Virus record (IMG/VR): IMGVR_UViG_2690315994_000021
DNA length: 4,458 nucleotides
Source of the DNA: a virus
Lineage: Duplodnaviria > Heunggongvirae > Uroviricota > Caudoviricetes
Reading direction: 5' to 3' (one strand)
The notes beneath the pieces were generated by a model. That model had not been told where the DNA came from, made no database searches, and saw only the letters and a list, made by a program, of their open reading frames with translations. Numbering within the stretch: the first letter of the stretch is position 1; each line of letters begins with the position of its first letter. Shown in pieces: positions 144-4,458 of the stretch. The translations under genes were made by a program, and so were the position numbers.

Positions 144-434
144 TTAGTGATTCAGGCCGTTACCGCGTCCGTCGAGAAAAACTTCCACGAGCAAATCACG
201 GGTATAAGTGCGCTCGATGCCGCGATGCAGATATAGCCGTCCGCGTAAATTAGCTGATGCAGTCCAGGTACCATCTTTGTGTTTGACCAGCATTCCTGGC
301 ATGACCGCACCGCGATTAACGGTCTGCGTTCCGTAATGTTGATGAACCATAAAAACTCCTGCCCGTAAGCTGGGCTGCTGAACATATATAGACTTCTGCG
401 CGTATTCAGGCGGTGGATGGCCGCCGGTTGTCAT
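144..434 (-). CDS. Hypothetical small prophage protein, first gene downstream of the leftward promoter (start uncertain: TTG 554, ATG 434 or ATG 350)
   Basis: The track ORF 144..554 starts at a TTG with no SD, and its first 40 codons are rich in rare Arg/Gly codons (AGG, CGG, CGA, GGA, GGG). ATG at 434 has GAGG about 10 nt upstream. ATG at 350 has a strong AGGAG 5 nt upstream. Stop is TAA at 146-144. The body has ordinary codon usage at about 50 percent GC. No family assigned. Confidence 0.5.
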
Positions 435-617: not shown

Positions 618-671
618 CAATAGCATGACAATAGCAATGGCTATTGGTGTGGTCAATAGCAATTGGTATTG
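618..671 (-). promoter_or_regulatory. Left operator-like cluster with embedded leftward sigma70-like promoter (pL/oL analogue)
   Basis: Heptamer CAATAGC at 618-624, 629-635 and 654-660; inverse GCTATTG at 640-646; GGTATTG at 665-671. These form an 18-bp palindrome CAATAGCAATGGCTATTG (629-646) and an imperfect copy (654-671). On the minus strand, TTGACC (plus 651-656) - 17 bp - TATTGT (plus 628-633) gives a promoter firing leftward from about 620. The same heptamer recurs in the cI-cro intergenic region. Confidence 0.45.
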
Positions 672-938: not shown

Positions 939-1877
939 TTAATTTATCTTTTCAACATTTCCATGAATCAACAAGTCGTAGGCAAGAAATAGTTTCCTAT
1001 ACTGGGTTTTTAAATTGTCAACGTCGCATGTCTTGAATTGAACAAACGCTTCTTTTTTAACATAATCTTCAATCTCCTCTTTGGGGATATTTTTTATGTT
1101 CTTAATGACTATAGACAATTCTTTGTACTTTTTGAACGTTGCATCCTTTATATCTTTGATGTTGGTGTAAATTTTATTTGCATTGATTTTATCTAAGGTG
1201 ATTTTATTGAGCAAGTCGTCTAGTTTTCCGTGGCGTTCAATGCGTTGATTTAGTTTTAACACATATTTAGCTGGCAAACTTAACTCTTTCAAATTACATG
1301 AGGTTATAGTTTTTGAAAATGGAAGTTGTAATGAGTTTACTGAGCCTAATATGAAATCTATGGCTAATTTATTAGATATTTCATTTTTATTAAATAAGTA
1401 ATCTTCAAGATAATTTATTTCTTTAACTTGTGTGAATACATACTTTTTATCGCCTAGAGCAACAACTAAATTTTTTCCTTGTTTAACACTTTCTTCAAGT
1501 CTGTCTAAGTCAGAAGGTGAAACCAATAGAGTATCTAAGTGCCCTTTTTCACCCTCATTAATGATAAGTGTTTTGATGGCTCTTTGATACCTTAAAACAT
1601 CATAAGGTGAGAGCCCTTCATCAACAGCACTGATCTCATCATAGATCTGTTTATAGTTATCTGTTTTAACAGATGTATATGTAATTTGTAGCTGTTGATC
1701 GGTAATCTGTTTTGGTACTACTTCCTGTTCATTCTCTTTATATTCAATCAAAATTATTCTTTCAGCTGATTTTCGACCATCTTCTCTAGGTAGTTGTGAG
1801 GAAAAATCAGAAAGAAGTTTCTTTACATTCCTGTCAGTTAAAGAATATCCAAGAAAAACTATTGGATTTTTAATCAT
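939..1877 (-). CDS. SIR2-family protein, 3' portion: longest start-codon-initiated segment of a longer disrupted gene (frame stays open upstream to 2132)
   Basis: The 312-aa track ORF starts MIKNPIVFLGYSLTDR, which looks like an internal SIR2-like strand and not an N-terminus. Translating the same frame upstream of the ATG gives, with no stop until 2135-2133, ...NINKKAKIIITTNYDAFIKNLL...WSELYKIHGDIKDPH...: a TTNYD motif (2102-2088) and an HG motif (H at 1979-1977). This matches the sirtuin TQNID and catalytic HG motifs. There is no ATG, GTG or TTG in frame between 2132 and 1877, so the track boundary is an artefact of start-codon searching. Confidence 0.75.
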   Translation of the reverse strand: MIKNPIVFLGYSLTDRNVKKLLSDFSSQLPREDGRKSAERIILIEYKENEQEVVPKQITDQQLQITYTSVKTDNYKQIYDEISAVDEGLSPYDVLRYQRAIKTLIINEGEKGHLDTLLVSPSDLDRLEESVKQGKNLVVALGDKKYVFTQVKEINYLEDYLFNKNEISNKLAIDFILGSVNSLQLPFSKTITSCNLKELSLPAKYVLKLNQRIERHGKLDDLLNKITLDKINANKIYTNIKDIKDATFKKYKELSIVIKNIKNIPKEEIEDYVKKEAFVQFKTCDVDNLKTQYRKLFLAYDLLIHGNVEKIN

Positions 1878-2525
1878 GTTAGATAGTATCTTGGCACTAA
1901 TGAGTATAGATTTGTTGTCATATTTTTCGTAATCATCTTTATTTATGATTATTGAGTGTGGATCCTTTATATCACCATGGATTTTGTATAACTCACTCCA
2001 TCCAATAGTATCTTCGAAAAAACCATTATTTCCAATATAGAGTTTTGGAGTTACATTTTGCTCTTGAAGTAAATTTTTTATGAAAGCATCATAATTTGTA
2101 GTGATGATTATCTTGGCCTTTTTATTAATGTTTTAAATGATGCTAATTCATCAAGATTTACATCCTTTCTGATTGTGTTATTAGAAAATCTTTGGCATAT
2201 AGCGTATTTAAATGGTGAAATATCTTCACTAAAAACCCTCTTGGCATCTAGTCCATTTAATTTTAATTTGCCAGTCCTAAACAATAGATTGTAATCATTT
2301 TCAATTTTACTTGCTGCCTCTGTATAAATCTTATGATCGATATCATTATCACTGTTATTTTTATGTGATTCTTTTATTGTTAAAAGATAACTATAGAAAT
2401 CATTTGTGGGATTTGTTATTTTCCAATACTCGTTTAATAGCTCTTCCCACGTTGGGTAGTTCTCTAAATATCTTTTTGAAATGCCTGAGCCAATAAAGAC
2501 TATTGGGTAATTTTTGAATTCAAAA

Positions 2526-2535
2526 TTTTTTTTTT
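2526..2535 (-). repeat. A10 (plus-strand T10) homopolymer spanning codons 3-5 of the SIR2-like gene; frameshift or slippage site
   Basis: Ten consecutive T at plus 2526-2535, read directly. On the coding strand it gives ATG TCA AAA AAA AAA TTT TGA. A 9-A version reads straight into the SIR2 N-terminal domain. Confidence 0.9.
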
Positions 2536-2582
2536 GACATATCCATATACCTTAAGCTCTGCTTGAAACATCCATTCTATAA

Positions 2583-2611
2583 ATTATGAGGATGTCAGCA
2601 TGTCTCACCAA
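2583..2611 (-). promoter_or_regulatory. Possible sigma70-like promoter for the SIR2-like gene within the cI-SIR2 spacer
   Basis: On the minus strand: TTGGTG (plus 2606-2611) - 17 bp - CATAAT (plus 2583-2588), about 40 nt upstream of the ATG at 2540. The -35 is weak. No strong terminator is visible between cI and the SIR2-like gene, so read-through from the cI promoter is also plausible. Confidence 0.2.
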
Positions 2612-2652
2612 AACATCATCTGGTTATCTTGATGAAATCTGTCATTAATAAT

Positions 2653-3345
2653 CTACCCATGTTTTCTATATGTCTGTGGCATGCTCCCAATAACTTTCCC
2701 AAATATAAATACCCGATTCATTTCGTCTTTTTCGATCGGGTCCCATGGTGAGTAGCTCTTGTTATCAGAGATAACCAGCAGCTTATCCTTCATCATTTGC
2801 AGGCGCTTTACATGGGCTGTGTCGTCGTACAGAAACGCATAGATACCATCACCGTCGAAAGATTTAACAGTGATATCAACGAACAGAAGATCACCTGGTT
2901 CGATCGTTCCTGACATGCTGTCACCGCGTACGTTAATGATGCGGATATTTTCTGCCTTCCTGCCATCGAACATGTGACGAGCATCGTCAAACGAGTACTC
3001 AACCGAGCGTAGGACTTCTACAAACTCACGGTTGATGACACCCGGCCCAGCACTGACTTCTATATCAAGAACGTCAATCTTGAAGTATTTGGAATGGTTG
3101 ACAGCAGGCTTCCCTGATTGTTGACCGTCATTTCTCATCGGGCCTATGCCTGATGAGAGCCACTCTGTTCGAACACCCAATGCATTAGCTATTTCAACAA
3201 TTTTTGTTGAGCCGCGTGCGTTGCCGCTTGTCAGTCTCCAGATTGTGGGTTGAGCTACGCCAGACGCCTTTGCAAGAGCGCCTTGAGACATTCCAGATTG
3301 TTCCATCGCTAGGTTTAAGCGATCAGCAAGAGTTTCTTTTTTCAT
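2653..3345 (-). CDS. CI-like prophage repressor: N-terminal XRE-type HTH plus C-terminal LexA/S24 autopeptidase domain
   Basis: The track ORF 2653..3381 starts at a TTG; the likely true start is ATG 3345 (MKKETLADRLNLAMEQSGMSQGALAKASGVAQPTIWRL...), giving 230 aa. The HTH is in the N-terminus. The C-terminal part has VRGDSMSGTIEPGDLLFVD (Ser nucleophile) and HVKRL (Lys), matching the LexA/UmuD/lambda CI Ser-Lys dyad pattern, with a candidate Ala-Gly cleavage site in EVSAGPG. It is divergent from a Cro-like gene. Confidence 0.85.
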   Translation of the reverse strand: MKKETLADRLNLAMEQSGMSQGALAKASGVAQPTIWRLTSGNARGSTKIVEIANALGVRTEWLSSGIGPMRNDGQQSGKPAVNHSKYFKIDVLDIEVSAGPGVINREFVEVLRSVEYSFDDARHMFDGRKAENIRIINVRGDSMSGTIEPGDLLFVDITVKSFDGDGIYAFLYDDTAHVKRLQMMKDKLLVISDNKSYSPWDPIEKDEMNRVFIFGKVIGSMPQTYRKHG

Positions 3346-3354
3346 AAGTTTTAA

Positions 3355-3447
3355 TTTATACGCTTGCGTATTGATGGTCAAAACACGTTTTGCTATTGAT
3401 TGGATTAATACGCATTGCTATTATCCATTCATTGTAATACCAATAGG
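3355..3447. promoter_or_regulatory. Right operator/promoter region: back-to-back divergent promoters for cI (leftward) and cro (rightward) with operator-like heptamers
   Basis: Rightward: TTGATT (3396-3401) - 17 bp - TATTAT (3419-3424), then AGGA (3445-3448) 7 nt before the cro ATG at 3456. Leftward (minus): TTGACC (plus 3376-3381) - 15 bp - TATAAA (plus 3355-3360), ending about 7-10 nt before the cI ATG at 3345, implying a leaderless or near-leaderless cI mRNA as for lambda pRM. Operator-like heptamers: GCTATTG 3392-3398, GCTATTA 3417-3423, CAATAGG 3441-3447. Confidence 0.45.
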
Positions 3448-3455
3448 AATTGATA

Positions 3456-3683
3456 ATGACAAATCAAACCATTCAACTCGCAATCAGTATTACAGGTAGT
3501 CAAAAACGACTGGCAGATCTATGCGGTGTAGCCCAGCCCACTGTTTGGCGTTGGCTACACGGTGGCGGAATTGATGCCCGCTATGTAATGAAAATTGTCT
3601 CAGCCACTGGTGGAAAGATTAAACCAGCAGATATTCGTCCCGACCTTGCACCATTGTTTAACGCGAGTAATTCTGCCGCCTAA
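3456..3683 (+). CDS. Cro-like HTH regulator (YdaS-like family)
   Basis: The track ORF starts at TTG 3450, but ATG 3456 has AGGA at the right spacing. Protein MTNQTIQLAISITGSQKRLADLCGVAQPTVWRWLHGGG...TGGKIKPADIRPDL matches, from memory, the YdaS/Cro-like pattern (ITGSQ, HTH, TGG, DLRPD). It is divergent from the repressor. Stop is TAA at 3681-3683. Confidence 0.8.
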   Translation: MTNQTIQLAISITGSQKRLADLCGVAQPTVWRWLHGGGIDARYVMKIVSATGGKIKPADIRPDLAPLFNASNSAA

Positions 3684-3707
3684 ACTGCGGCGTTAACTGA
3701 TAAGGCA

Positions 3708-4253
3708 ATGACTATGCAACCACTTACATACCAACAGACTAGCGGATTTAGCCCGACTGCGGTGATAAATCGTTCTCAAACAAAACAGGCGCCAGGCCAC
3801 GAAAAAATCCGTGATGCCGTTCGCGCTTGGTCGGCTGCAGATAATCAGGATGTTGTTGCCGCACTCATTGTGAATGAGTATCGGGAGCAGGGCGGCGGCA
3901 CCATCGATTTCCCTGATGATGTCAGCCGTGCACGCCAGAAGCTGTTCCGTTTCCTCGATAACAAATTCGATTCTGAAAAATACCGAAATAACGTGCGTGA
4001 ACTGACCCCGGCAATTCTGGCGGTACTACCGCTGGAATATCGCGGCCACCTGGTTGAGCAGGATAGCTTCATGGCTCGGTTGGCTGAAATGGATAAGGAA
4101 CTCAGTGAGGCAAAGCAGGCGGTCATTCTCAACGCACCACGCCACCAGAAACTGAAGGAAATGAGTGAAGGTATTGTGTCGATGTTTCGTGTGGACCCGG
4201 ATCTGGCTGGTCCATTAATGGCGATGGTTACCACCATGCTGGGGGCAATATGA
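3708..4253 (+). CDS. CII-position regulatory protein, YdaT-like family
   Basis: 181-aa ORF directly after cro (AAGG upstream; alternative ATG at 3714). Motifs EYREQGGG and LTPAILAVLPLEYRGHL resemble what I recall of E. coli Rac YdaT-family proteins. Family assignment is from memory and not verified. Confidence 0.7.
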   Translation: MTMQPLTYQQTSGFSPTAVINRSQTKQAPGHEKIRDAVRAWSAADNQDVVAALIVNEYREQGGGTIDFPDDVSRARQKLFRFLDNKFDSEKYRNNVRELTPAILAVLPLEYRGHLVEQDSFMARLAEMDKELSEAKQAVILNAPRHQKLKEMSEGIVSMFRVDPDLAGPLMAMVTTMLGAI

Positions 4254-4420
4254 CAGGTTCAGAAATGGCGAAAGCCGGTCTGCGGGAACAGAGCCGACTT
4301 TCAGGTGCAAATCGTAACGCACTCATTGCGGAAGGAATTATGGCAAACACTGTGAACCGCCCCGGTTTTCCTGGAGAGTGTTTTATCTGTGAACTCAGGC
4401 TGCCAGATCATCGTTTCTGA
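4250..4420 (+). CDS. Small hypothetical ORF (56 aa), translationally coupled to the upstream gene
   Basis: Its ATG (4250-4252) overlaps the upstream TGA stop (4251-4253) in an ATGA arrangement. Protein MTGSEMAKAGLREQSRLSGANRNALIAEGIMANTVNRPGFPGECFICELRLPDHRF contains a CxxC. It is below the ORF-track size cutoff and I recognise no homology. Confidence 0.3.
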   Translation: MTGSEMAKAGLREQSRLSGANRNALIAEGIMANTVNRPGFPGECFICELRLPDHRF

Positions 4421-4458
4421 TGGAAGCATAATAAGCTTTTTCTGCTTCTGCCGGAGGG

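Follow-up and report, generated by a model that had tools for sequence, protein, structure and literature searches.

PDC-S25, a prophage-borne SIR2 family with a putative infection-sensing C-terminal module, and its disrupted copy in a lambdoid prophage

Introduction

Bacterial immunity repeatedly employs SIR2 NADases as effectors, and the non-catalytic part of each protein sets the trigger of the system. When a SIR2-like protein carries a long C-terminal region of its own, the question is therefore what this region is and whether it could be deciding when the enzyme is switched on. Such a protein is encoded on the minus strand of the viral DNA studied here (the window, meaning the whole stretch of 4,458 nucleotides that was analysed). 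A single gene of about 530 amino acids would be a compact system for learning how a lone protein detects infection and sets off the depletion of NAD+. The first-pass annotation of this DNA, made from the sequence alone, had described a continuous SIR2 protein of 533 residues with 280-300 residues beyond the SIR2 core, to which no domain could be assigned, and had implied that the family might be an undescribed one. The present analysis follows the gene from its prophage setting to the family to which it belongs and to the parts of its product. At a rough probability of 0.6 we read it as prophage cargo of the family PDC-S25, in which the C-terminus senses infection and gates a NADase like that of ThsA and DSR2, and which is present here as a pseudogene. 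The coordinates of the features are collected in Table 1.

Table 1. Features of the window and of the repaired SIR2 protein (residues in 533-aa numbering)
Feature	Position	Strand	Basis or remark
kil, cell-division inhibitor, next gene downstream of the cargo slot	144..350	-	PF27398 KilR
TGCTATTG operator-like half-site cluster, OL/PL-like region	618..671		Overlaps promoter-like site 656..628 minus
GC-rich hairpin (GCCCCG...CGGGGC) directly after the SIR2 stop codon	908..932	-	Read from sequence
SIR2-family (PADLOC PDC-S25) gene, disrupted	939..2546	-	Repair and relatives; stop codon 939-941
Sole intact ORF of the gene, 312 aa, start at internal Met222	939..1877	-	ORF listing
Family-specific all-alpha bundle, residues 373-533	942..1424	-	AlphaFold2
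Conserved connector, residues 306-372	1425..1625	-	AlphaFold2, alignments
SIR2 (SIR2_2/ThsA-like) fold, residues 1-305	1626..2540	-	Pfam, ThsA alignment, AlphaFold2, Foldseek
Predicted catalytic His188 codon	1977-1979	-	ThsA alignment
G-to-A relative to intact relatives, Glu155Lys	2078..2078	-	
Predicted catalytic Asn149 codon	2094-2096	-	ThsA alignment
A5 run, about codon 141, -1 frameshift relative to A6 in intact relatives	2119..2123	-	
A10 run, codons 3-5, +1 frameshift relative to A9 in intact relatives	2526..2535	-	
GxGxS NAD-binding motif	residues 17-21		
cI-like repressor (HTH and peptidase S24)	2653..3345	-	Pfam of identical gene; directly upstream of the SIR2 gene, co-oriented
OR-like region with TGCTATTG half-sites	3353..3448		PRM-like 3381..3353 minus, PR-like 3396..3424 plus
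End of an IS3-family element, cutting the O-like replication gene after codon 34	4356..4458		

Prophage context of the SIR2 gene

At 99.9% identity the window matches a lambdoid prophage of the DLP12 type, integrated beside tRNA-Arg and fimZ in E. coli O55:H7 as well as in other strains. On the minus strand the order is the cI-like repressor, the SIR2 gene, the hairpin, a non-coding stretch of 588 bases, kil and the beginning of gam. On the plus strand are a cro/YdaS-like gene, a YdaT-like gene and an O-like replication gene of which only the initial 34 codons are left; because an IS3-family element truncates the latter, the prophage is defective in replication in this strain. The hairpin could possibly act as a transcription stop, as judged from its sequence, and the plus strand has a called terminator-like site of its own at 918-933. 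No RNA family was found in the window by Rfam.

The half-sites of TGCTATTG number 11 against 5.3 expected. They are clustered at 618-671, with a perfect CTATTG-N7-CAATAG palindrome at 641-659, and at 3391-3448, in the interval between the repressor and cro. These clusters resemble OL and OR operators for the cI-like repressor, bracketing a unit made of cI and the SIR2 gene, and the OL/PL-like region is predicted to drive kil, gam, bet and exo. Because half-site and promoter-like clusters flank the cI/SIR2 unit, the SIR2 gene is placed between OL/PL and cI. The 107 bases that separate the repressor from the SIR2 gene contain no called promoter-like or terminator-like site, which makes co-transcription plausible; in lysogens the two genes probably share a transcript.

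Two observations concern the origin of the gene and its slot. The SIR2 gene (900-2650) has a GC content of 28-30%, the prophage genes on either side having about 50%, and homologues are common in low-GC Firmicutes and Morganellaceae; together these point to horizontal acquisition. Phages with an immunity region about 96.5% identical to the present one carry other cargo between cI and kil, including the toxin-antitoxin pairs GevT/GevA in PhiR47_2 (2331-3759) and HipA/HipD in PhiR5_1 (2357-3930). Further phages of this kind list, for example, an ASCH-domain protein among the features of this region, its position in the slot being unconfirmed.

A disrupted copy of the gene

A continuous SIR2 protein of 533 residues, as the first annotation had it, is not encoded by this copy. 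The gene contains two frameshifts, and only an ORF of 312 amino acids is left open. Both indels were found by three-frame translation and alignment to intact genes that are 99.9% identical. When they are repaired, the product has 535 amino acids if translation starts at the ATG at 2546 and 533 if it starts at the ATG at 2540. In the unrepaired sequence, translation from the ATG ends after 8 codons (MDMSKKKF and a stop) owing to the A10 run. The 312-aa ORF lacks the predicted catalytic Asn149 and His188, both of which are encoded upstream of Met222. Since the two frameshifts part the start codon and the NAD-binding motif from the remainder, no active enzyme can be made. A separate C-terminal isoform starting at Met222 was considered and set aside, there being no Shine-Dalgarno sequence upstream of it.

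Sequencing error as the cause of the frameshifts was also rejected. The complete allele (the A10 run, the A5 run and the G-to-A change) is present in the NCBI contig CYBJ01000081.1 (GCA_001284825.1), which over all its 4458 bases is the reverse complement of the window, and in the Logan read-set assemblies ERR10017185 and ERR137783, of which ERR137783 may underlie the NCBI assembly, so that the three sources are not certainly independent. An identical 312-aa product is called in three assemblies. The occurrence of an identical allele in three assemblies argues that the frameshifts are real mutations and not assembly noise. Over 4.3 kb the window shows about four differences from strain DEC5B, three of them within the first 470 bases of the gene. 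At the A5 site, A6 is found in both relatives that were examined directly. The family is present in 166 of 5426 complete E. coli genomes (~3%); none of the 166 matches the window without differences at the A5 site, and three of them have the A10 run alone. We read the SIR2 gene as a pseudogene in the lineage of this window. As the copy is inactive, the phenotype of the source strain would be uninformative about the family.

The recurrence of A10 alone among the E. coli genomes makes the 5' A9 run look like a mutational weak point at which a probably costly gene is switched off, and this recurrent change may reflect the fitness cost of carrying the gene. A conserved phase-variation switch at this run was rejected, because the tract is absent from the homologues in other genera and is thus not a feature of the family. 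It is possibly a fragile site specific to E. coli. Some Gram-positive phage genomes, among them Lactococcus phage BK5-T (23715-24914) and Streptococcus phage IPP23, contain only partial or split copies of the homologue, in which the coverage is 66-75%, spread over one or two ORFs. Decay of the gene may be common outside E. coli too.

The family and its SIR2 domain

The repaired protein is 99% identical to WP_000038831/WP_001417737, which are annotated as 'SIR2 family protein'. It matches the PADLOC candidate PDC-S25 over nearly its whole length (E=1.2e-233, residues 3-526 against model positions 5-526 of 528). The models of PDC-S25 are PDLC04967 and PDLC04968, and they are equivalent to PHROG 2695, which PHROGs lists with function unknown and which is matched at E=9e-201. 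The earlier suggestion of an undescribed family is therefore not upheld, since the family is already catalogued in both collections. The C-terminal 282 residues by themselves match PDC-S25 at E=9e-101, and the C-terminus alone matches phrog_2695 at 1e-81. Given these family-model scores and the conservation of the region in hundreds of homologues, the C-terminal region is more than a chance extension of the reading frame. In the searchable literature PDC-S25 appears solely as a PADLOC prediction in an O157:H7 strain, and no experiments on the family were found there. One paper on S. thermophilus that came up concerns SIR2-HerA and not this family.

The only Pfam match of the repaired protein is SIR2_2 (PF13289), at residues 144-283 (E=7e-23; 81.6 bits, the gathering cut-off being 24.5). 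The canonical sirtuin family PF02146 gave no match at E<=1 in the same Pfam scan. The protein has only three cysteines (residues 115, 415 and 505), and the canonical zinc module needs four, so it has no zinc ribbon. Matches to PDB sequences (ThsA, KomC and chains related to them) are confined to residues 139-286. In the alignment with ThsA, N149 stands opposite ThsA N112 and H188 opposite H152, which we take to be the catalytic residues of that enzyme. G17, G19 and N149 are invariant among 93 homologues, and H188 is kept in at least 90% of them. When the full-length predicted structure was searched with Foldseek, ThsA and DSR2 were found at about 1e-10, or about 1e-9 for DSR2, through the SIR2 domain only. 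Judged from these residues and alignments, intact members of the family are predicted to be NADases.

Anatomy and distribution of the C-terminal region

The region to which the first-pass annotation could assign no domain (942-1790, minus strand) encodes residues 251-533 in the numbering of the repaired protein of 533 amino acids. It does not begin where the SIR2 fold ends. At about residue 250 the chain is still inside that fold: the SIR2_2 match runs to 283 and the ThsA alignment to 286, and AlphaFold2 places strands at 262-293 and a helix at 296-304, so that the fold continues until about residue 305. An additional C-terminal part does exist, as had been proposed, but instead of 280-300 residues it comprises about 228 (942-1625), the other 55 or so of the 283 being part of the SIR2 fold. 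The composition was well described as lysine- and leucine-rich (K 12.7%, L 11.7%), and the peptide quoted in that description is present at residues 445-496. The expectation that the C-terminus would be largely helical is borne out by AlphaFold2, in which residues 306-533 are almost wholly helical. The full-length model, built with 93 homologues, has a pLDDT of 82, and a separate model of residues 305-533 has a pLDDT of 80.

Within the additional part two regions can be told apart. The connector consists of a long helix (312-332) followed by a low-confidence segment, with the motif LVSPxDLDxLE...GKxIVVALGDKK and the invariant residues G309, L335, L339, A361 and G363. Its pLDDT is only 44-62 over residues 331-370. 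This low confidence leaves the relative arrangement of the two domains undefined in the model, the pTM of the full-length prediction being 0.60. The bundle that follows has about ten helices, is modelled at pLDDT 85-98 (residues 374-526) and contains the quoted peptide. Its conserved residues are Y377, D380, Y381, P407, F408, N481, R515 and D522. Mean pairwise identity is 0.53 in the connector and 0.52 in the SIR2 domain, as against 0.34 in the bundle. On these alignments the bundle evolves faster than the enzyme part, and the connector is conserved as strongly as the SIR2 domain.

Residues 333-372 (1425-1544) are the worst-modelled segment in spite of 93 aligned sequences, several invariant residues and the VVALG motif. 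Going by the models, this segment may be ordered only in an oligomer or in an activated state.

Searches for a known domain in the C-terminus agree with the first reading that none can be assigned. No Pfam or NCBIfam domain covers it, and no Pfam family recurs in the C-termini of 30 family members scanned individually. A profile built from 30 C-termini gave nothing below E=0.1 against all PDB sequences, and the viral predicted structures of BFVD gave no match at E<=0.001. Searched by itself, the C-terminus brought up no PADLOC or PHROGs model other than those of the family. Sub-threshold matches of the C-terminus to RBB1NT, DUF4047 and RlmC were set aside as chance. A confident match to a sensor domain of an already described SIR2 system, the result that would have made the region a known one, was looked for and did not occur. 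The view that the region does not resemble SLOG or the partners HerA and Argonaute holds as far as sequence and fold comparison reach. PDC-S25 is thus catalogued, yet its C-terminal module is undescribed and the bundle is without a detectable relative.

A profile of the C-terminal region was searched against 1.84 billion representative proteins and gave 107 matches. Nearly all of these lie at about residues 300-535 of proteins of 520-545 amino acids, or are fragments. Among ten matches whose domains were checked, SIR2_2 was found in five, no Pfam domain in four and a beta-propeller in one (P0222), the last being a spurious short match and not a carrier of the module. Three of the four matches devoid of Pfam domains were inspected; in two of these the last part of the SIR2 domain is still present, and they appear to have lost their N-terminus. 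A fusion of the module to another effector was looked for and not found. From these matches the C-terminal module appears to be specific to this SIR2 family. Many modular sensor domains recombine with different effectors; this one apparently has never done so, which would equally fit a structural or oligomerisation role.

Homologues occur in prophages of enterobacteria, Morganellaceae, Listeria, streptococci, enterococci and Bacillus. In every context examined the family gene stands alone, in a lysogeny or accessory module of the prophage. It follows directly after an S24 repressor in E. coli, Morganella and Kosakonia, lies between repressor and integrase in Streptococcus suis, adjoins a serine integrase in Listeria and comes after the lysin in a Bacillus prophage. 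Across these six the neighbours differ, and a conserved partner gene was not found.

Discussion

The present analysis describes the C-terminal region of a SIR2 family that is carried by temperate phages. By analogy with other SIR2 systems, and because partner genes are absent from the neighbourhoods, the most likely role for this C-terminus is that of a regulator or sensor gating the NADase. A solitary gene with a faster-evolving bundle is compatible with a sensor or regulator, and is not a demonstration of it. In the intact members of the family the bundle would recognise some cue that signals infection, a phage protein being the likeliest one. The connector would then pass this event to the SIR2 domain, either by releasing autoinhibition or by driving oligomerisation. 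The SIR2 enzyme would in turn deplete NAD+ and the infection would be aborted, in the manner of DSR2 and ThsA. A more specific version can be put forward tentatively, at somewhat short of an even chance. It holds that the bundle is an undescribed receptor for a phage protein, wired through a flexible connector to a ThsA-like NADase, and that PDC-S25 is a compact, DSR2-like abortive-infection system in one protein, carried in the lysogeny modules of Gram-negative and Gram-positive temperate phages to exclude competitors.

It should be considered that the C-terminal module could be a scaffold for oligomerisation or autoinhibition, activation being sensed by the SIR2 domain itself or following a general change in the state of the cell, like a metabolite shift or the loss of a host factor. 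The module is found almost solely at the C-terminus of proteins of 520-545 amino acids or in fragments, and of the family matches that were checked, five carry SIR2_2 and none another effector domain. A connector as conserved as the catalytic domain is also in keeping with such a scaffold, and low pLDDT in a conserved segment is what an interface formed only in the oligomer would give. According to the titles of PDB entries, the solved structures are a helical assembly for ThsA and a tetramer for DSR2. On the other hand the bundle is markedly more variable than the SIR2 domain, which is unexpected for a pure self-assembly interface, although its lower conservation could come from weak constraint and not from an arms race. 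Moreover, with no partner gene in any context examined, some part of the polypeptide must perceive infection. We therefore regard a mere scaffold as unlikely, at something like one chance in a handful or slightly better, and prefer a C-terminus that senses infection.

Two other explanations are less likely than the scaffold. The C-terminus might bind a small-molecule signal made by an unlinked host or phage enzyme, as the SLOG domain of ThsA binds gcADPR. The SIR2 domain is indeed closest to those of ThsA and KomC, both of which belong to signal-dependent systems, and the conserved polar residues D380, Y381, N481, R515 and D522 could line a pocket; yet the region is all-alpha and resembles neither SLOG nor Macro nor any other nucleotide-binding fold, and a TIR, cyclase or kinase gene is not a conserved neighbour in the genera examined, which makes a small-molecule sensor improbable. 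Slightly less credible still is a function outside defence, in which a NAD-dependent deacylase or ADP-ribosyltransferase of the prophage would modify a host or phage protein to aid lysogeny and the C-terminus would select the substrate. Some records do name homologues 'NAD-dependent protein deacylase', and a position in the lysogeny module would fit any function in lysogenic conversion. Against this, the domain is of the SIR2_2/ThsA type and has neither the canonical sirtuin match nor a zinc ribbon, PADLOC lists the family among its defence candidates, sister phages carry toxin-type cargo in the same slot, and repeated loss of function at the A-run is in keeping with a gene that is costly and toxic. 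Taken together, we infer a defence role for the family.

Comparison of related phages indicates that the site next to the repressor is an exchangeable cassette. The position of the gene in the slot of rexAB adds evidence for a repressor-adjacent, exchangeable defence cassette in lambdoid phages.

Comparison with known systems

In lambda, rexAB lies in the same slot as the SIR2 gene, between OL/PL and cI and co-oriented with the repressor; the proteins are unrelated, so the analogy is one of position and function only. SIR2-HerA and the SIR2-APAZ/short pAgo systems (SPARSA) likewise use a SIR2 NADase as effector. However, no HerA or Argonaute gene adjoins the gene here and the protein has no APAZ-like region; the model of the pAgo-associated SIR2 protein is matched weakly (E=8e-4) and in the SIR2 part only.

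PDC-S25 itself is the closest known entity, both in the match to its full-length model and in being a single gene on mobile elements. It is, however, a computational candidate that comes with no described mechanism or annotation of its C-terminal domain, and the copy studied here is frameshifted. Among the systems with a name, Thoeris ThsA has the SIR2 domain closest by sequence (PDB 6lhx at E=1e-11; PADLOC ThsA at 2e-20, residues 145-257), and its catalytic Asn and His align with N149 and H188 of the family. Its C-terminal SLOG/STALD domain is absent here, the place being taken by an all-alpha region that has no fold match, and an adjacent ThsB/TIR gene was seen in none of the family neighbourhoods examined.

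DSR2 has about 1000 amino acids, with a long helical middle and C-terminal domains, and a family of about 530 amino acids does not fit that build. The NADase of DSR2 is modulated by phage proteins (PMC10973363; titles of PDB entries). Like the PDC-S25 family, DSR2 is a single-gene system, in which one polypeptide joins an N-terminal SIR2 NADase to an all-helical non-catalytic region.
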